In this document: piece after piece, positions 9,125-50,434 of the stretch
Position numbering within the stretch: position 1 is the first letter of the stretch
Layout of the letters: every line of letters starts with the position of its first letter
From: Candidatus Aminicenantia bacterium
GTDB taxonomy: Bacteria > Acidobacteriota > Aminicenantia > Aminicenantales > Saccharicenantaceae
Reading direction: 5' to 3'
Assembly: GCA_041479905.1 (NCBI GenBank)
Contig: JBGOYY010000002.1
Location: forward strand, 16,802-80,801
DNA: 64,000 nt
The notes under the pieces: model-generated
Database searches by the model: none
Told to the model about the DNA's origin: nothing
The model's input: the letters and a program-made list of their open reading frames with translations, nothing else
Translations under genes and position numbers: made by a program

Positions 9125-9200
9125 GGGCGGTTAGCTCAGTTGGGAGAGCGCGGCGTTCGCAACGCTGAGGCCGGGAGTTCGAGTCTCCTACCGTCCACCA
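9125..9200 (+). tRNA. tRNA-Ala(CGC)
   Basis: 76-nt cloverleaf: GGGCGGT/ACCGTCC acceptor with G3:U70, anticodon loop TT-CGC-AA, T loop TTCGAGT, encoded CCA. Confidence 0.97.
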
Positions 9201-44238: not shown

Positions 44239-45276
44239 TTATCCTTGCTTAGTTCGAAATTCATGAAGGCGGGTATTGTCGATCATGCTTCCGAGTGTTT
44301 TTATTGTAAAAACCTTGCCCCTTGTGGACAGTATCATTTTTTTCATGTCTTCCCGACGTACACCAAAGCCGCGGCCGCCGATACAGGCTATAACCTCGTA
44401 TTTGGGCTTGTTCTTAGGGCGTCCTGCAACGCTGAGTTCGCCAAGATGTTGAATGCGTGTCACTTTGTCTCTGGCCGTGCCGTCATCTTCTGTAATTTTT
44501 GCTTCGATAATAATCTGTGGATTAAATTCGCTGGGAATAATGAAATCGGGCGATTGGTCAAATCCCTCGATCCTTTCCGCGCGTTTCGTTTTGCGGAAGC
44601 TTATTCCAGCTTTCGCAAGAATATCCTCTATGGCCGACTCAAGACTATCTCCTACTAACTCGCTGACGGAATCCCGGTGCCCGGCAAACGGTCGGCCCAA
44701 GAAACGCTCATAAAGGAGCATAGCATAAGGCGCGCCCATCGCTGAGAGATTCTCGATGCTCTCAATCCCCTGCTTTGTATCTGCCTTATCCAGTCGATGC
44801 AATTGGTCCTTTTCTACCTCTGGCACACTTGCAGATAACATCTGAAATGCAGTTTCTAATAATGCTTCTACGCGTTTCTTTGATATTCCGGTTAGCTTCA
44901 TAGGCTTATCCGGGGACATCCTTATTCTCCGGTCGAGAGACCGAACAAAACCCTGAGGTATTTTCAAATCTGTACGCTGGGTCGTTACATATCCCCACTC
45001 GGGTGGGGTGAAACCGAGCATTGTACGCAAGACAATAATTGAAATCGGTTGTGATTCAATAAAGGGAAAAATCCTCTCCAGCTTGAGCTTGGAAAAACCG
45101 GCAGTTGATGATTTAAGAACTTCATAACCACGCTCGAAGATTGGATATTCAATAAAGCCCACGCCTTTTGGCATCACTAAGAATTCCGATTCTAAACTTG
45201 AAAAGATGGCATCTACAAACAGGTCTGGATTCCGCTCAATTTCTTCAAATGATGACTTAAAAGGATACATAGTCAT
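44239..45276 (-). CDS. Putative PD-(D/E)xK restriction endonuclease
   Basis: GDSLE...SPDFIIP...IIEAK motif; overlaps the methyltransferase 3' end; RBS GGAG. Confidence 0.7.
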   Translation of the reverse strand: MTMYPFKSSFEEIERNPDLFVDAIFSSLESEFLVMPKGVGFIEYPIFERGYEVLKSSTAGFSKLKLERIFPFIESQPISIIVLRTMLGFTPPEWGYVTTQRTDLKIPQGFVRSLDRRIRMSPDKPMKLTGISKKRVEALLETAFQMLSASVPEVEKDQLHRLDKADTKQGIESIENLSAMGAPYAMLLYERFLGRPFAGHRDSVSELVGDSLESAIEDILAKAGISFRKTKRAERIEGFDQSPDFIIPSEFNPQIIIEAKITEDDGTARDKVTRIQHLGELSVAGRPKNKPKYEVIACIGGRGFGVRREDMKKMILSTRGKVFTIKTLGSMIDNTRLHEFRTKQG

Positions 45277-47470
45277 GGAGTTCTCCATAGCCTTTGACAG
45301 GTTCATTGAGAATTAGCGGCAAGTCCTCTCCTGTATACGAGAAATCTCCGGCATGAATTAGCCTTTCTACTTCGGGCCAGCCACCTATCTTCTGAATCCA
45401 AACATTCACTCTGCGCATTCGGCTAGCAATGTCCTCATGCCGGTCCCATTCTTTACGTAATGACCAGATGGCGAGGCGTATAAGATGTCCGTAGGCTATG
45501 CACCTGGTGTCGCCGGGCGAGGGCCTAATATCACCAGCTTTAAGGTGTTTAAGATCTTCCATGACGAGTTGCGCTATCCCATAAGCCGAATCGGCAAGCC
45601 ATTTTTTATGCATCAAGCCAGCCGACCGGCAGACGAAGATGGTATCAATTATCGATGAACCCGTGCCCTTAATATGAATGGAAGCTCCCATCTCCGCCGG
45701 ACAAGGAAGGGAGGCAGAACATGCCAATCCAGCGTCCAATATGGCAACTGCGATCGGAAGATATGCCGTTAATTCGTTATGATGATATGTAAAGGCAAGG
45801 GGAGAACCCGGCTTTAGTCCGAATGCCATACTGCGAAAAACAGCTGAGAGTCCCTCAGCGAAATGATCTATGCCTCTTCCCATATCGTCATTGCCGGTCA
45901 ACTCTTGAGGATTTCGAGTTGATGGCTTTTGGAATGCGGGAGTAGTATCTCCAATCAAACGACGAAGCCATACATAACAAAAATCCATTAACTCTGCATA
46001 TTGTACGTTACTAAAATAAGGAGGATCGGTAAAGACTGCATCGAGCGAAGCTGGAGGGATATCAGCTTTTGATGCATCTTCGCACCGTAGATCAACGATC
46101 CTCCCGGAATTGACGCTTTCCCCATTCAAGCGGTCCCCAATCCATTCACCGCTGATAGGAACGACTTTCTTTGTCCGTCCGGTGTGTTTTATCTCAAATG
46201 GGCTGTCACAATAAGCTTTGGCTTTACGAAATTTTTCAATGATATTTGCCCATCCTCCGCTTCCAATACACACATTTTTATTATTATCGATTATTCCTAA
46301 TAAATTAGACTCGCATTGGATGAGACCAATAGGGAACCCATGAACAGAAAAAATATCAAGGGACTTTAGGGCCATCGTATCATATCGGCATAGCATATTT
46401 TGATATCGCAATAAATCGGAAAGATTGGTCGCGAGGGCGTTGCGCAGACGTTCACTTGGTATGCCGGAGATCAAGCGCGCGGACAGCTCCAGGCCAAGCA
46501 ACTGTCTTGAATTGAACATCTCATGATAGCTGCGATAACCCCAGCGATGTAAACGGTTCGTTTCATCCCCGGTGGGTATCTGCTCTTCGGGGACAAGCGT
46601 TGGTTCTATCTTAGCCCATCTCTGTGAAGATTCTTCAATCCGGGAGATATCCGTTGAATCTGGTGCTTTGAAATATCGGCCAACATGCTTATTCTTACAA
46701 AACGAACAGTAATATTCTATTGCGAAGAGCCTATGAAGGGGCGCCCCAAGCGTCGCATTTGGATACTCGTTAATAGTCCCGCAAGTCTTACAAGCGCATC
46801 GATTACGCTTAGCTGGCCCATCAGGAGAAAGACGTGTATGGCAGCTTCGGCAGAGGCCGGGATTATGTCTATCTATGGTTTCAGTCAACTGTCCACACGA
46901 CGGACAAACGAATACGTTCATTGGGTGACGTGTATTATCGGCAAGTAAATAGCCAGGGAAAAGATCAATTTTAGCCTGGCAATTTTTGCATGGAATATGT
47001 TTTACCCAAAGAAAATATTTAACGTCTGCGTTGTCTGCGCCACAAACTTCGCAAGTGGTCTTATAAAGCTGTCCAACCTCGTTCGAAATGCTTCTTCTTA
47101 AAGAATCAGCTGCCTTGATATAAGCCTTAAGATCGAGATGTTCAATTTCTTGCTTAACAATCCAATAGGCCATCGGGTTGATATCAAAGCCAAGGACATC
47201 ACAGTCCATCCGATTCGCCTCTAAAAGCGGGGTTCCACCGCCCATGAATGGGTCCGCAATTCGTATCCCTTTGAAATGGTTAGCGCGATAAAATGATTCT
47301 CGAATGGGAACTTCCGAAAATTCCGCTAGGAGCAGCCCACGAAACAACGTTCCGGGGCGACGGGCAAACCATTTATGAACGGCAATAATCGGGCGATACT
47401 CTTGTTGGATTTGTTTCTCTCTTAAGGCAAGATCCGCAATAAATTGAATATCGAAATTGTTTTCTATCAT
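45257..47470 (-). CDS. Amino-type DNA methyltransferase with Zn ribbons (DUF1156-like)
   Basis: HKWFARRP, DPFMGGGT (motif I), six CxxC pairs, TDPPY (motif IV). Confidence 0.88.
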   Translation of the reverse strand: MIENNFDIQFIADLALREKQIQQEYRPIIAVHKWFARRPGTLFRGLLLAEFSEVPIRESFYRANHFKGIRIADPFMGGGTPLLEANRMDCDVLGFDINPMAYWIVKQEIEHLDLKAYIKAADSLRRSISNEVGQLYKTTCEVCGADNADVKYFLWVKHIPCKNCQAKIDLFPGYLLADNTRHPMNVFVCPSCGQLTETIDRHNPGLCRSCHTRLSPDGPAKRNRCACKTCGTINEYPNATLGAPLHRLFAIEYYCSFCKNKHVGRYFKAPDSTDISRIEESSQRWAKIEPTLVPEEQIPTGDETNRLHRWGYRSYHEMFNSRQLLGLELSARLISGIPSERLRNALATNLSDLLRYQNMLCRYDTMALKSLDIFSVHGFPIGLIQCESNLLGIIDNNKNVCIGSGGWANIIEKFRKAKAYCDSPFEIKHTGRTKKVVPISGEWIGDRLNGESVNSGRIVDLRCEDASKADIPPASLDAVFTDPPYFSNVQYAELMDFCYVWLRRLIGDTTPAFQKPSTRNPQELTGNDDMGRGIDHFAEGLSAVFRSMAFGLKPGSPLAFTYHHNELTAYLPIAVAILDAGLACSASLPCPAEMGASIHIKGTGSSIIDTIFVCRSAGLMHKKWLADSAYGIAQLVMEDLKHLKAGDIRPSPGDTRCIAYGHLIRLAIWSLRKEWDRHEDIASRMRRVNVWIQKIGGWPEVERLIHAGDFSYTGEDLPLILNEPVKGYGELHDYVSF

Positions 47471-47664
47471 GTCTTCAATAATAATGACGTTTTTAGAAAT
47501 AAATTACTATCATTCTATAACATATTCCCCGACTGGTGGAATGGTAGTCTCCTAGTGCTTTTTACCAACTGGAATGCATATATTAAGTGTATTATATATC
47601 AATAAGATACGTAGCGGGTGGGGGACATTTAATTTTTTCAGAGTGCGCGAATGCCGGTAGTGTC

Positions 47665-48483
47665 CTAATTTAAATCTAACAGATCGCCGACGGCCCAAGG
47701 TTCCCGCGTGATTCCAGCCTCCATGGCGGGGGTAACCCTCAAGCTACTGTGTATCCTGACAAAGTTGTAATGGGCAAAGTGTGGGGCGACAGCCGCCTTA
47801 AGGTTCTCCAGCTTCTTGCTAAATGCGTTAGTTAGGCGGGTGAAGCGGCGCATCTGCATACGCATAGTTAGGTTCTGGCGCTCAACATAGGATGTAGATA
47901 TTCGCTCAATTCGCGGCTGGCCGGTTATGACAAATCGATCAGCCGCGATAACCATTGGCGGGGAATACCGCCCGGGCCCAATGGCCTCACCTTCAAAAGT
48001 TTTTACGATTTGCCCATAATCAACGCCTGCCCCGAAGGACAATTCCACGGCCTCGACATAGGCAGAGAGAGAATCGCTTGATAATTGAACGAGGTTATTC
48101 ACCCGGCCCGATAGATCGGCCAGAAAATCATAAGCCGTCGGCAAGTCTCGCTTGCCGATTTTATATGATGGAATCAACTTGCTTTCTGCATCTATCGCCA
48201 CAAAAACCCATTGGTCGCCCAAGACAGAATGATCATCGGTCTTTTTTAGGTGCCGCTGCTTTTTCCCGACATAGCACCAAATCTCATCTAACTCAATATA
48301 CTTGCATGGCAGATCGCGCATGGTTTCATCTAAAAGCCGCTCACAATTCTGCCCAACTCGGAGCATTAAACGCATAATTGTATCTCGATGGATTCCCGTC
48401 ATACGCTCAACCGAACGAATAGACGAACCTTCAACCAGAGCGGAGATTGCCATTTCCTGTTTTTCTTGGCATAGAACGTTCAT
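47665..48483 (-). CDS. IS1-family DDE transposase, single ORF, no Zn finger
   Basis: HTH (SIRSVERMTGIHRDTIMR), ELDEIW, SSDSLSAY, YVERQNLTMR, AFSKK, HYN; stop lies inside the left inverted repeat. Confidence 0.9.
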   Translation of the reverse strand: MNVLCQEKQEMAISALVEGSSIRSVERMTGIHRDTIMRLMLRVGQNCERLLDETMRDLPCKYIELDEIWCYVGKKQRHLKKTDDHSVLGDQWVFVAIDAESKLIPSYKIGKRDLPTAYDFLADLSGRVNNLVQLSSDSLSAYVEAVELSFGAGVDYGQIVKTFEGEAIGPGRYSPPMVIAADRFVITGQPRIERISTSYVERQNLTMRMQMRRFTRLTNAFSKKLENLKAAVAPHFAHYNFVRIHSSLRVTPAMEAGITREPWAVGDLLDLN

Positions 48484-48531
48484 TTTTGTGTCCCCATTGA
48501 CAAAGAGCTTAACCGATGTGATAGAATGCAA

Positions 48532-48602
48532 GGGTGGAGGCAGGGGGAATCGGACCCCCACGGCGAGATGTAAAGGCTAGCCTGGGCACCAGCCCTGCCC
48601 CC
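48532..48602 (-). ncRNA. Compact tRNA-like sequence with alanine identity
   Basis: Acceptor GGGGGCA/TGCCTCC with G3:U70 and discriminator A, followed by CCC; T arm GGGGG-TCCGATT-CCCCC; short arm GGGC-TGGT-GCCC; imperfect anticodon-like arm. Confidence 0.65.
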
Positions 48603-48754
48603 ATAAGATAATCGCCACGGCCCTAAACTTGGCCACTCTTGGGGAATTGTCAGGTTTAGGGCCTTCCTGTTCTGGCCCCCGCTGACGGCGATTCTGTAAT
48701 CAACGAGGGCTTTGTCTCTTCTCATGAATTCTCTTCTTATGATGGTCATGTTAT

Positions 48755-48860
48755 ATTTATATACAATAATCGGTTATTTGTCAAGATATTTATCGGTTCT
48801 ATCGGCATTTATATTATTTTTTAACTTGGCCTTGACAAACGCCTCCCTATCGGCTATATT
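48755..48860. promoter_or_regulatory. Divergent sigma70 promoters with repeated ATCGG boxes
   Basis: Plus strand TTGACA(48832)-17-TATATT; minus strand TTGACA(48784)-17-TATAAA; four [AT]ATCGG[TC] direct repeats. Confidence 0.7.
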
Positions 48861-48889
48861 ATGAGTGGCAATTGATAAGGAGCATTCTG

Positions 48890-49690
48890 ATGGAAGAGCA
48901 AGCCAAGAAAAAAAAGACCAAAGTTAGGAGTCCAAATTATCCCGGATATTCCCTTGATCGATGCATTAAATTGGTTGGCATTCTCTATGAGAATTTCAAA
49001 AGAACATCAAGCGCTATTGAGGTTGCCACAAAGTCTATCGGGTTTTCTTCTAAGAGTAGCTCCGGCATGCAAGTCATGGCCTCTCTGTCATATTATGGTC
49101 TAATCAACATAGAGGGGACTGGGGCAGATCGTAGGGTTAGCGTCTCTGATTTGGCGTTCAAGATCATCTTTGATAAGCGACCTGAATCCACAGAACGTGA
49201 GGCTGCAATTAAAGAGGCTGCATTAAACCCGGCGCTCTTTAAGAAAATCAAAGAATTTTATGGAAATCAAATTCCTAATGATTCATCCTTAGAATACGAT
49301 TTGCCATTTAAATTTAAGTTTAATCCAGGAACAGTTAGGGAGTTTATTCGGGTTTTTAAAGATACAATGGACTTTGCTAAAGTGTATGAATCTGATATAA
49401 TGGCAGGTGAGAATATATCAGAGGAGGACAGTGGCATGATACCTCAAGAAGAAAAGATGGAACCAAGGGGGCTGATTCCCCCGGGGACAATGAGGCCCCC
49501 CGTTCGCACTGTGGCTGGGGATGAGCGCGAAAAGGCCCTATATTCTCTGGGAGGCGATTTAAAAGTCCGGATTGTCTTCTCTGGCACGTCCACCATTTCA
49601 GACAAGGCTATCGAAAAACTAATGAAACTGCTCGCTATCAACAAAGAGGATTTTATCGAAGAAAAGGTTGATGACAAAGAACCAAAATAA
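48890..49690 (+). CDS. Hypothetical IS passenger protein, possibly winged-helix DNA-binding
   Basis: RBS AAGGAG; RSPNYPGYSL...ASLSYYGLI; 266 aa open frame in AT-rich DNA. Confidence 0.75.
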   Translation: MEEQAKKKKTKVRSPNYPGYSLDRCIKLVGILYENFKRTSSAIEVATKSIGFSSKSSSGMQVMASLSYYGLINIEGTGADRRVSVSDLAFKIIFDKRPESTEREAAIKEAALNPALFKKIKEFYGNQIPNDSSLEYDLPFKFKFNPGTVREFIRVFKDTMDFAKVYESDIMAGENISEEDSGMIPQEEKMEPRGLIPPGTMRPPVRTVAGDEREKALYSLGGDLKVRIVFSGTSTISDKAIEKLMKLLAINKEDFIEEKVDDKEPK

Positions 49691-49985
49691 ACCTATAAAT
49701 AGGCTCAAAGATCTAGTTGAACAACTCCACCATTGTACGGCCTCCCATATTGAAGAGGTTGCAGTAATAGAAAAATACGGCTCAAGTACCGCTTGGGAGG
49801 GCATTGTCCACGTTTTCAAAATATCGGGTCATCCCCTAACTGATATTTGCTATGCTTGGTCATCTTCAATTGAAGGCTCAACTAAGCGCCGTTATTATGC
49901 TGTTTTAAAAATATCCCCGATAGACTCCCCGGAAAAGGCCGTCCGGGCCTCAATCGTCCACGATTACAAAAAGGAGAAACCATAA
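49671..49985 (+). CDS. Hypothetical IS passenger protein
   Basis: WEGIVHVF...CYAWS...SPEKAVRASI; overlaps both neighbours. Confidence 0.7.
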   Translation: MTKNQNKPINRLKDLVEQLHHCTASHIEEVAVIEKYGSSTAWEGIVHVFKISGHPLTDICYAWSSSIEGSTKRRYYAVLKISPIDSPEKAVRASIVHDYKKEKP

Positions 49986-50125
49986 TGTCTAAAAAGCAAC
50001 CGCAAACAACTCTCAAGGGGAGGGACGCCAAGACGGGGCATTTTATCCCCGTTGAGAAGGCTCGCAAAAACCCTGACCATACCACAGTTGAGCGGGTGCC
50101 TCTCCCCGGAAAGGGCAAAAAGTAG
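49985..50125 (+). CDS. 46-aa basic IS passenger protein
   Basis: RBS AAGGAG, TAATG coupling; MSKKQPQTTLKGRDAKTGHFIPVEKARKNPDHTTVERVPLPGKGKK*. Confidence 0.7.
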   Translation: MSKKQPQTTLKGRDAKTGHFIPVEKARKNPDHTTVERVPLPGKGKK

Positions 50126-50155
50126 CCTAGTACTCTCGTAGTCTCCTGGTTTTTA

Positions 50156-50389
50156 TTATTGTATTGCCCGTTTGGGAATTGTTATGTCTCCGCTGTACTG
50201 TGCCTCCCCCTGTCTCTGACCTGCGACATGAGGGACTATCGTCCAGCATTTGGCATTCTTATTGATTAGCCAGCCCACAGATTGACAATGGAGCGGTTCT
50301 GCGGCTTTTTTTAGATCCTCAAGCGATTGCCAGCCCCGCCCTGAATGTGAATCCGTCCATTCGACTAGAACCAATTTTTCTTTTTTCAT
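50156..50389 (-). CDS. Small beta-rich, phage-like IS passenger protein
   Basis: VLVEWTDS...CQSVGWL...ITIPKRAI; ATG abuts the right inverted repeat. Confidence 0.65.
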   Translation of the reverse strand: MKKEKLVLVEWTDSHSGRGWQSLEDLKKAAEPLHCQSVGWLINKNAKCWTIVPHVAGQRQGEAQYSGDITIPKRAIQ

Positions 50390-50434
50390 ATTAGGACACT
50401 ACCCGAATGCCTCGCCGATTGACAAAATAGTTGG

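Follow-up and report, generated by a model that had tools for sequence, protein, structure and literature searches.

A compact tRNA-like gene with an alanine identity set and a stop-codon anticodon in an IS1 lineage

An insertion sequence of the IS1 family in a Candidatus Aminicenantia bacterium carries a compact tRNA-like gene, which precedes the transposase on the same strand (Table 1). The window referred to below is the whole stretch of DNA that was analysed, 64,000 nucleotides of contig JBGOYY010000002.1. Amongst related elements, the four stems of this gene are kept by compensatory changes across phyla, and so are the G3:U70 pair, the discriminator A73 and, in nearly all members, an anticodon loop of the form N-U/C-[U/C]UA-C-A. 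Taken as a whole, the evidence is best read as a real compact, non-canonical tRNA gene that is co-transcribed with the transposase, accepts alanine, carries an ochre or amber anticodon and forms a conserved module of one IS1 lineage. We hold this reading with moderate confidence.

The location inside an insertion sequence, which had been proposed in the initial annotation of this DNA, is borne out by the terminal inverted repeats, by the 8-bp target duplication and by the congeneric genome G060, whose site is empty: both flanks are contiguous there and the target is present once, as the related word CGAAGGGC. IS1 ends begin with GGT and yield duplications of 8–9 bp. A GGTAGTG start and 8-bp repeats are common to 60 of the 156 related loci described below. 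The transposase exceeds the Pfam cut-off (Table 1); the NCBIfam model transpos_IS1 (NF033558) gives 67.8 bits (E 1.2e-18), which is under its cut-off of 100, so the protein is considered a distant IS1 member. Homologues with 54–86% identity were found in at least 160 loci, and the genome contains this element only once. A 13-nt inverted repeat (47511/48516), which would place the tRNA-like gene just outside the element, was also considered as its ends, and is ruled out by the GGTAGTG ends, the target duplications and the empty site. The element adjoins a gene for a DUF1156-type DNA methyltransferase. The locus is present in 17 sequencing runs, all of them DNA from sediment metagenomes, and a search of RNA runs did not find it. 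Read assembly of four DNA runs produced no contig joining both flanks, and a short joint in run X6 (47675 to 50384, side 25) probably reflects repeats or another organism; no inference was drawn from it.

Table 1. Features of the IS1-family element and its surroundings (positions are those of the window)
Feature	Position	Strand	Basis or remark
Target-site duplication CGAATGCC, copy 1	47648..47655	.	8-bp direct repeat
IS1-family transposable element, 2748 bp, transposase on minus strand	47656..50403	minus	Inverted repeats, 8-bp direct repeat, empty site
Terminal inverted repeat GGTAGTGTCCTAAT, 14 bp, contains the transposase stop codon	47656..47669	.	Sequence
Transposase, 272 aa	47665..48483	minus	Pfam DDE_Tnp_IS1 PF03400, 38.7 bits vs cut-off 24.1
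Compact tRNA-like gene	48532..48602	minus	Sequence, model R1 match and family covariation
Structured leader	48603..48725	minus	16-locus alignment
Promoter-like site TTGTCA-16-TAATAT	48811..48838	minus	9/12, consensus match only; candidate for leader, tRNA-like gene and transposase
Cargo ORF C, 266-272 aa, winged-helix-like N-terminal domain	48890..49690	plus	Predicted structure, pLDDT 74
ORF B, 105 aa, second core gene of the IS lineage	49668..49985	plus	In 58/60 delimited elements
Small ORF, 46 aa	49986..50126	plus	Read from sequence
ORF A, 77 aa, adjoins inverted repeat	50156..50389	minus	Homologue at same place in G111 element
Terminal inverted repeat, 14 bp, reverse complement of other end	50390..50403	.	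Sequence
Target-site duplication CGAATGCC, copy 2	50404..50411	.	8-bp direct repeat

Searches of the cargo proteins with Pfam, NCBIfam, a protein atlas, structure prediction and fold comparison returned no function. ORF C matches no family in Pfam or NCBIfam, and its predicted model gives winged-helix matches that are weak (E 0.02 or worse). For ORF B, the fold search with a better model (pLDDT 89) gave no clear match, and the profile searches found no family for the 46-aa small ORF. For ORF C, 14 of 15 sequences were aligned, and for ORF B 42 of 58. ORF C accompanies the tRNA-like gene in 12 of the 27 delimited elements that have one, compared with 3 of the 33 that do not.

Read on the minus strand, the gene consists of an acceptor stem GGGGGCA/UGCCUCC (48602-48596 with 48542-48536; seven of seven pairs, including G3:U70), a D-like hairpin GGGC-UGGU-GCCC (48595-48584; 4-bp stem, UGGU loop), an anticodon arm (48582-48562) with five of seven pairs, that is, two mismatches in the window copy, a variable region of 2 nt, and a T arm GGGGG-UCCGAUU-CCCCC (48559-48543; five of five pairs) whose 7-nt loop has C at position 55. 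A73 is at 48535 and is followed by CCC (48534-48532) in place of CCA, so that the window reads ACCC. The gene measures 68 nt up to the discriminator and is separated by 48 nt from the transposase ATG (48483). Direct reading therefore confirms the tRNA shape with an alanine identity set that the initial annotation had described on the transposase strand, together with its position, length and CCC end. G3:U70 with A73 is the set recognised by alanyl-tRNA synthetase (AlaRS), and the fuller tRNA-Ala identity set of G3:U70, A73 and G2:C71 is present both in the window and in the family. The 9-nt anticodon-like loop first proposed (CCUUUACAU) encloses the 7-nt loop of the family, CUUUACA (48575-48569), in which the anticodon UUA (48573-48571) is complementary to a stop codon.

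Compared with canonical elongator tRNAs, the window gene and its family have the 7-bp acceptor stem, the 5-bp T stem and the 7-nt T loop. They lack the linker at positions 8–9 and a D loop of 7–11 nt with G18 and G19, since the D hairpin directly abuts the acceptor stem, and UGG is retained in the D loop of the family. Decoding tRNAs normally carry a purine at position 37; in the window, U33 is present and position 37 is a C. Two of the tools named for this purpose in the initial annotation failed to recognise the gene: ARAGORN called neither a tRNA nor a tmRNA in the window, and Rfam returned for the element tmRNA matches alone, with 18.6 and 22.9 bits against a cut-off of 47. The folding energy of the single window sequence is ordinary (z -1.12), with 32 of 200 shuffles folding equally well.

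A covariance model (R1), seeded with 10 relatives of equal length that were picked from 59 sequences and did not include the window, recovers the window element with 55.9 bits (E 5.6e-10), the next best matches in the rest of that genome being ordinary tRNAs with at most 33.7 bits. R1 is not fully specific, as ordinary tRNA-Lys genes of other genomes reach 41–48 bits. From the confirmed transposase relatives, 80 of 573 and 80 of 567 were sampled as loci, and 156 of these 160 were tabulated (L077, L082, L174 and L182, in which the match is without the N-terminus, were omitted). A family member lies upstream on the transposase strand in 61 of the 156 loci, which belong to several phyla. Its frequency by transposase identity to the window is 12/13 at 70% or more, 16/23 at 65–69%, 18/35 at 60–64% and 12/67 at 54–59%. 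Wherever a delimited related element has an R1 match (27 elements), this match lies between the inverted repeats. The module is absent from 33 of the 60 delimited elements, indicating that it is not needed for transposition. The distance to the transposase ATG is 20–50 nt in 45 of 56 unique cases, mostly 30–50 nt; some members are found farther upstream, at 260–470 nt, or as tandem pairs.

The family was also searched for from the side of the RNA. A DNA search with the tRNA-like region in 86 relatives gave no match, and in 150 further genomes of the phylum one of the 21 matches examined is a family member (L208), the other 20 being ordinary tRNAs; L213 (genome G241) was omitted from the matches examined. 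L208 is degenerate, and no transposase lies closer to it than 1.5 kb. The nearest relative of the window module is found at L114, where it is 84% identical and stands beside a transposase only 56% identical to that of the window, whereas the closest transposases carry more divergent module copies. This mismatch suggests that the module has been exchanged in its own right.

The acceptor stem is paired in 100% and 99.5% of cases in the two match sets, with 6/7 and 5/7 pairs changed on both sides. The corresponding figures are 98.9% and 98.1% for the T stem, 87.7% and 81.8% for the D stem, and 68.4% and 73.4% for the anticodon stem, and none of the observed whole-structure measures was reached by any of 500 shuffles. 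The initial annotation had noted that relatives without the structure, or without covariation, would speak against it; the related elements carry the module and its stems covary. Within this structure, G3:U70 is found in 59 and A73 in 58 of the 60 unique members, counts which are partly circular for G3:U70 because all R1 seeds had that pair. Pair 2:71 is G:C in 36/37 and 32/32 members of the two sets. That the G:U pair persists although the pairs around it are free to vary argues for selection acting on the RNA, in agreement with recognition by AlaRS.

The anticodon is conserved as well. Position 35 is U and position 36 is A in all 60 unique members, and position 34 is either U (46) or C (14), so the family anticodons are UUA (46/60) and CUA (14/60). 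C37 is present in 58/60 and U33 in 45/60. The length to the discriminator is 67–71 nt in 55/60 (gene about 68–71 nt, variable region about 2–5 nt), and CCA is encoded in 19/60. Conserved G3:U70 and A73 together with a UUA or CUA loop fit a charged tRNA, in line with the charged small RNA that the initial annotation had listed among its possible roles. Standard tools recognise few of these genes: ARAGORN called 11 of 70 R1 matches, 4 of them as tRNA-Stop(tta), and of 20 loci scored with RF00005, four attained its gathering score, two of them with longer UUA members and two with Ser-type tRNAs, whereas in the remaining 16 every compact member fell below it. The upstream genes called tRNA-Stop(tta) number seven, namely those four R1 matches, a further member (L101) and two tRNAs of Leu type (L113 and L116). 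The occurrence of UUA on a different, Leu-type scaffold suggests that the UAA-reading anticodon itself is selected. The same slot in relatives also holds other odd tRNAs, with anticodons UAU, UAG, ACU, CAG and GAC, and this variety fits a more general role that any tRNA could fill.

The tRNA-like gene is preceded, in the window as in at least 15 relatives, by a covarying, pseudoknotted leader. It comprises the segment AUGAGAAGAG (48725-48716), helix P1 (48710-48700 with 48685-48675), helix P2 (48663-48651 with 48631-48619) and a pseudoknot in which AAUCGCC (48693-48687) pairs with GGCGAUU (48616-48610). In the alignment of 16 of 19 leaders (L156, L158 and L192, with different spacing, were omitted), 94.3% of cells are paired and 23 of 31 pairs are changed on both sides. 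A mini-ORF in the leader (AUG AGA AGA...) was rejected as a conserved protein, its length ranging from 3 to 81 codons and its peptide varying where the helices covary. In 18 of 45 loci, the 250 nt that precede the tRNA-like gene contain a sigma-70-like site, ten of these matching 11–12 of 12 positions; such a site lies between the gene and the ATG in only 4 of 45. These positions favour co-transcription with the transposase, which in turn fits the earlier idea of processing by RNase P and RNase Z.

On the preferred reading, one transcript would run from a promoter upstream of the structured leader through the tRNA-like gene and the transposase. The tRNA would be excised by RNase P together with the enzymes of tRNA 3' processing, whose cuts would at the same time set the 5' end of the transposase message. 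CCA would be added where it is unencoded, as in the window, after which host AlaRS could charge the RNA with alanine. The anticodon, UUA here and CUA in some relatives, would pair with UAA or UAG. Given this anticodon, the mature product would most probably be a weak nonsense suppressor that inserts alanine or, because position 37 is a C, a charged tRNA that decodes poorly; efficient decoding is doubtful considering that C37 is found in 58/60 members.

Targets of suppression were looked for within the elements, in transposase ORFs, interrupted frames and transposase stops, and none were found. The transposase ORFs are intact, with about 272 aa, with or without the module. In-frame breaks in elements with the module amount to 24 TGA, 19 TAG and 12 TAA, against 33, 22 and 18 in those without it, and frames interrupted by TAA or TAG are thus not commoner where the module is present. 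The type of anticodon does not track the transposase stop codon either, 18 of 56 transposases ending in TGA.

The main alternative is a purely cis-acting mimic. In this case RNase P and RNase Z would cleave at the structure for the sole purpose of detaching the transposase message from transcription that starts upstream or reads through, and of fixing its 5' end and stability; the RNA released would be uncharged and have no role. The short and fairly fixed distance to the ATG, the few promoter-like sites in between, the unrelated tRNA types in the same slot and the conserved structured leader are all in line with this. For cleavage by processing enzymes, G3:U70, A73 and a particular anticodon loop are all dispensable, and yet the three are kept (the loop in about 58–60 of 60 members); in addition, some members lie hundreds of nucleotides away or in tandem, and the L114 pairing suggests exchange of the module on its own. 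Considering both sides, we regard this explanation as possible but rather unlikely.

Less probable still is a decoy or antidote against a nuclease or modifying toxin that targets tRNA, encoded by host defence or by the cargo. The initial annotation had likewise suggested a decoy for tRNA-cleaving toxins. The adjoining methyltransferase gene could be taken in its favour, as could the loop, which is close enough to that of tRNA-Lys for R1 to cross-match tRNA-Lys genes. The weak structural matches of the ORF C winged-helix domain include RNA-hairpin binders, but they are at the level given above and ORF B has none. Pfam and NCBIfam detect no nuclease or toxin family in the element, and ORF C is missing from 15 of the 27 module-bearing elements. 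We therefore consider this role improbable.

The least probable explanation, a functionless decayed fragment of a captured tRNA or tmRNA (a pseudogene or integration-site remnant), to which the tmRNA ends found by Rfam, the imperfect anticodon stem and lack of CCA in the window copy, the silence of ARAGORN and the degenerate L208 could all be ascribed, is already contradicted for the family by the compensatory upkeep of the structure across phyla. For the window copy, the arguments against it are two acceptor strands that are both present and perfectly paired, a position inside the element and not at its border (the gene is not an att remnant, in agreement with the initial annotation), compensatory differences from the host tmRNA, and a downstream GGGG run, needed for a permuted tmRNA, that does not covary between the window and L012.

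Two tmRNA-related candidates were considered separately and rejected. A permuted, two-piece tmRNA (RF04321: T arm, 3' acceptor strand and downstream GGGGACA) would use a downstream strand that is mismatched and shows no covariation in an 82%-identical relative, while the upstream strand covaries. As for an origin from the host tmRNA, the latter is on another contig and its acceptor and T stems differ.

Among tRNAs already described, those nearest to this gene are the allo-tRNAs and further irregular tRNAs of Acidobacteria and relatives, but the defining features of allo-tRNAs are not found here. According to the main text of Mukai et al. 2017 (PMC5389517), allo-tRNAs are bacterial tRNAs of non-canonical form whose anticodons are missense or nonsense, and they are defined by a long variable arm and an acceptor/T branch arranged as 8/4 or 9/3; some have G3:U70 and a UUA anticodon, amber variants inserted alanine in E. 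coli, and a link to transposable elements is hinted at. The IS family resembles those described there in its D arm (a stem with a tetraloop), in G3:U70 with the nonsense anticodon UUA, and in a host from the same phylum, Acidobacteria. It differs in its 7/5 branch, in which pair 49:65 covaries, in its short variable region and total length as opposed to a long variable arm, and in its fixed slot in an IS1-family element with inverted repeats and target duplications, of which the main text makes no mention (PMC5389517). The first T-stem pair of the family is CG in 19 cases, AU in 6, GC in 4, UA in 4 and GU in 2, and its covariation indicates a T stem of five pairs. The family consensus has G8 opposite G; the window taken alone can also be drawn as 9/3. 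The view in the initial annotation that such a mimic had not been described stands in part: literature searches did not find the compact 7/5 family or its systematic linkage to IS1, with the reservation that figures S5/S6 of PMC5389517 may show similar sequences, but alanine-type, UAA-reading allo-tRNAs are already in print (PMC5389517).

With the tRNA-like domain of tmRNA (RF00023, RF04321), the gene shares the GGGG...CUCCACC acceptor, G3:U70, A73, the T arm and the alanine identity, and the common acceptor and T arm explain why Rfam aligns both tmRNA ends. The window element has no mRNA-like domain or tag frame (24 nt against 328 in the model), and it does have an anticodon arm, which tmRNA lacks. 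Suppressor tRNAs are also carried by phages and other mobile elements, and here again a tRNA with a stop-codon anticodon is found on a mobile element; the carrier in this case is a DDE insertion sequence of 2–4.6 kb, no recoded genes were found in the IS, and position 37 is a C. A loose family pattern gave one match in a viral contig collection. Finally, the 3' ends of plant virus RNAs carry tRNA-like structures with upstream pseudoknot domains. The likeness is one of layout only, a pseudoknot followed by a tRNA-shaped unit in the message-bearing RNA of a selfish element; here the unit precedes the coding region, its carrier is a DNA transposon of bacteria, and its acceptor stem is standard and not pseudoknotted.

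The common view of insertion sequences is that they contain hardly anything besides a transposase. The IS1 lineage described here has three extra conserved parts, namely the tRNA-like module, a second small protein and, in many copies, the covarying pseudoknotted leader. It is conceivable, and we propose it tentatively, that this one lineage spreads a miniaturised alanine tRNA reading UAA or UAG across Acidobacteriota, Desulfobacterota-type 'delta proteobacteria', Nitrospirota, Chloroflexota and other phyla, and that its elements act as mobile modifiers of stop-codon reading, with the tRNA on the same transcript as the transposase and a new leader that may gate both. If the RNA is charged and decoding, the elements would move a stop-codon suppressor between phyla, which bears on the origin of deviations from the genetic code and on readthrough. 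If it acts in cis only, it would represent a new route by which a bacterial transposon sets transposase expression via the tRNA-processing enzymes of its host. Either way, the family supplies compact tRNA scaffolds that standard tRNA finders miss, and gives a genomic context and many natural variants to the 'irregular tRNAs', which up to now have been known chiefly through surveys of metagenomes.

The IS1-family element that carries the tRNA-like gene could be delimited because homology with an 82%-identical homologue extended far beyond the transposase; it ends in terminal inverted repeats flanked by an 8-bp duplication (see table). In the congeneric genome G060 both flanks are contiguous, with only one related target word, which makes the 2748-bp element a precise insertion. 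Its own genome has one copy. The location inside an IS element proposed in the initial annotation is thereby confirmed. The NCBIfam model transpos_IS1 matches the transposase with an E-value of 1.2e-18, under the model's cut-off. Six relatives in the same order, 3.1–4.0 kb long, share the GGTAGTG ends and 8-bp duplications, and such ends with a duplication occur in 60 of the 156 tabulated loci (among the loci listed), spanning 2.0–4.6 kb. Wherever a delimited element has a tRNA-like match (27 elements), the inverted repeats enclose it. ORF B (about 100 aa) is found in 58 of the 60, on either side of the transposase; its predicted model is confident (pLDDT 89), with no fold match above Z 4.8. 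ORF C is commoner with the tRNA-like module (12/27 elements) than without it (3/33), and the weak structural matches of its predicted model include RNA-hairpin-binding winged helices. The methyltransferase-like gene adjoining the element hints at a defence island.

Features of the IS element, its tRNA-like gene and related loci (window positions unless a locus or genome is named)
Feature	Position	Strand	Description
tRNA-Ala(CGC)	9125-9200		sole ARAGORN call in the window
Gene adjoining IS	45257-47470	-	large DNA methyltransferase-like protein; weak DUF1156 and D12-class methylase matches
Terminal inverted repeat	47656-47669; inverted copy 50390-50403		GGTAGTGTCCTAAT; read in sequence
8-bp direct repeat	flanks both inverted repeats		CGAATGCC; read in sequence
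Transposase ORF	47665-48483	-	272 aa; Pfam DDE_Tnp_IS1 above cut-off
tRNA-like gene	48602->48532	-	compact tRNA fold
Acceptor stem		-	GGGGGCA/UGCCUCC; 7 bp, G3:U70
D-type hairpin		-	GGGC-UGGU-GCCC; usual two linker bases before it missing
Anticodon-like arm		-	loop CUUUACA; 5/7 pairs
Variable region		-	2 nt
T arm		-	GGGGG-UCCGAUU-CCCCC; perfect
3' end		-	discriminator A, then CCC
Leader RNA	48603-48725	-	GGAGG, Shine-Dalgarno-like; word RUGAGRAGRG, fixed 117-126 nt; covarying helices P1, P2; pseudoknot AAUCGCC (P1 loop) with GGCGAUU (after P2); same region in L123, L124, L044, L137, L138, others
ORF C	48890-49690	+	266-272 aa; winged-helix-like N-terminal half, well predicted
ORF B	49668-49985	+	105 aa; second core gene of this IS family
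Ser-type UAU, UAG tRNAs	L036 1555-1648; L038 2219-2310; L039 885-981		92-97 nt; in slot, ~50%-identical clade
Leu-type UUA tRNAs	L113 2432-2512; L116 586-671		81-86 nt; in slot
Tandem tRNA-like genes	L055 2763-2914; L045 2793-2957		two different genes before one transposase
Isolated copy, L208	G312:C239:2194-2265		CUUUACA loop, broken acceptor stem; no transposase within 1.5 kb
61-nt tRNA-like fragment	G000:C47:4848-4908 (L205 1501-1561)		T arm, acceptor stem ending ACCA; no ARAGORN call

Read on the minus strand, the gene agrees with its first description in the 7-bp acceptor stem with G3:U70 and discriminator A, the 5-bp T stem with a TCCGATT loop, the miniature D-like arm and the imperfect anticodon-like arm. 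The discriminator is indeed reached at 68 nt, the end is CCC and not CCA, and the ATG of the next ORF lies 48 nt past that end, where about 50 nt had been claimed. The compact gene escapes standard detectors: ARAGORN makes no call at it, and Rfam in E-value mode gives only matches that fall short of the cut-off of 47 bits, to the two ends of tmRNA (18.6 bits) and to permuted tmRNA (22.9 bits). Its single-sequence folding energy is ordinary (z -1.12).

The module recurs upstream of homologous transposases. The 160 related loci among the matches listed encode transposases 54–86% identical to that of the window. Their sources are metagenomes and MAGs with the titles Aminicenantes, delta proteobacteria, Desulfobaccales, Syntrophorhabdaceae, Nitrospirota, Acidobacteriota, Alphaproteobacteria, Chloroflexi, Dehalococcoidia, Verrucomicrobia and others. 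Scanning the 400 nt upstream of each transposase for the stems returned 58 unique candidates from the loci and, with that of the window, 59 in all; they measure 67–74 nt to the acceptor 3' end, and every one has GGG...UCC followed by A. The covariance model R1, built from ten 73-nt members with the window sequence left out, scores the window element at 55.9 bits (E 5.6e-10) and gives 72 matches in the loci listed, every one on the transposase strand and 71 upstream of the transposase (the exception being L054). After it, the highest scores in the window's own genome belong to tRNA-Glu, -His, -Gln and -Gly, none above 33.7 bits. Since ordinary tRNA-Lys genes in other genomes reach 41–48 bits, membership was defined by features and not by the R1 E-value alone, the members being the 60 of 67 unique match sequences that have the central loop motif. 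Among these 60, the acceptor is wholly paired in 57, G3:U70 is kept in 59, A73 in 58 and C74 in 50, and CCA is encoded in 19; the modal length to the discriminator equals the window's, 68 nt. Position 33 is U (45) or C (14), position 34 U (46) or C (14), positions 35, 36 and 38 are invariably U, A and A, and position 37 is C in 58. Presence of the module follows transposase relatedness to the window's, from 12/13 listed loci at 70% identity or more, through 16/23 at 65–69% and 18/35 at 60–64%, to 12/67 at 54–59%. The first tandem gene of L045 shares the G3:U70, C37-A38 framework and bears the anticodon CAG. Among the listed loci, the nearest module relative (L114, 84% identical) stands beside a transposase only 56% identical, while the closest transposases have more divergent module copies, so that the module seems to pass between elements.

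The stems covary. In two hit sets, 100% and 99.5% of cells pair in the acceptor stem, 98.9% and 98.1% in the T stem, 87.7% and 81.8% in the D stem and 68.4% and 73.4% in the anticodon stem; changes on both sides of a pair are many in the acceptor stem, present in the T and anticodon stems, and found in all four D-stem pairs. None of 500 shuffles equals the observed structure in any whole-structure measure; with slid partners, pairing drops to 44–64%. The alignments were fitted to R1, which favours the structure, but compensatory changes are still plain in the raw sequences. A strand-specific G:U, a T loop of tRNA type and covariation together show that selection acts on RNA from the transposase strand.

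A leader roughly 125 nt long, conserved in the window and at least 15 relatives, precedes the gene; in the window, GGAGG and AUGAGAAGAG stand before the helices and pseudoknot. Over 16 loci, 94.3% of leader cells pair, with both-side changes in 23/31 pairs and, for the pseudoknot, in 4/7. A conserved mini-ORF protein was rejected (length 3–81 codons), and the leader RNA has no match in Rfam. Other relatives have in its place a near-consensus sigma-70 promoter 42–80 nt upstream, followed by a stretch rich in A and by a GC hairpin. Promoter-like sites lie upstream of the tRNA-like gene in 18/45 loci, and between it and the ATG in only 4/45, which favours a single transcript for leader, predicted tRNA and transposase. 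In the ~50%-identical clade (L036–L042), only about 6 nt separate the end of a consensus promoter, TTGACA-17-TATAAT, from the ATG of the transposase, suggesting a leaderless message there.

The kept G3:U70 and A73 fit AlaRS recognition, and ARAGORN independently labels seven upstream genes tRNA-Stop(tta), two of them Leu-type genes of this IS family that are built on another scaffold. Together with the selection on the RNA, this favours a processed, putatively alanine-charged nonsense tRNA: one transcript would carry the tRNA-like RNA and the transposase, processing would free the former, and the freed tRNA, with an anticodon of nonsense type, would receive alanine. The near-invariant C37 and the weak anticodon stem of the window copy count against efficient suppression, and no stop-codon targets for it were found in the elements. 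Transposase stops are TAG or TAA in 45/65 loci beside a tRNA-like gene and 37/88 without (156 related loci), an excess probably confounded by shared ancestry; stop codon and anticodon type show no link. The main rival, a general cis role of slot tRNAs in processing or expression, stays alive because other odd tRNAs occupy the same upstream slot in related elements. ACU, CAG and GAC types also occur in the slot (ACU/GAC entries: L096 and L175, L104).

Other identities were rejected. A standard tRNA does not agree with the missing 8-9 linker, tetraloop D arm and C37; the allo-tRNAs described in the main text of Mukai et al. 2017 (PMC5389517) have a long variable arm, whereas this family has none and has five covarying T-stem pairs; and the host tmRNA, on contig 17, shows compensatory differences in acceptor and T stems. 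Two longer members, L093 and L188, have a normal D arm and reach the Rfam tRNA threshold, which suggests that the compact gene arose from an ordinary tRNA by shrinkage. The 61-nt fragment is perhaps a tRNA that was truncated, or else the remnant of an integration site.

Full-text literature searches, including the main text of PMC5389517, gave no account of the compact family, nor of a systematic link between it and an IS1-family element. The initial remark that no such gene was recognised as described stands, within these searches, for the compact family and its IS1 setting, and not for irregular tRNAs as such, allo-tRNAs being in print (PMC5389517) and non-canonical tRNAs reviewed (PMC7609411). 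Against these sources, the gene belongs to a known kind, irregular and possibly suppressor tRNAs on mobile elements, of which the compact IS1-linked family is a new one.
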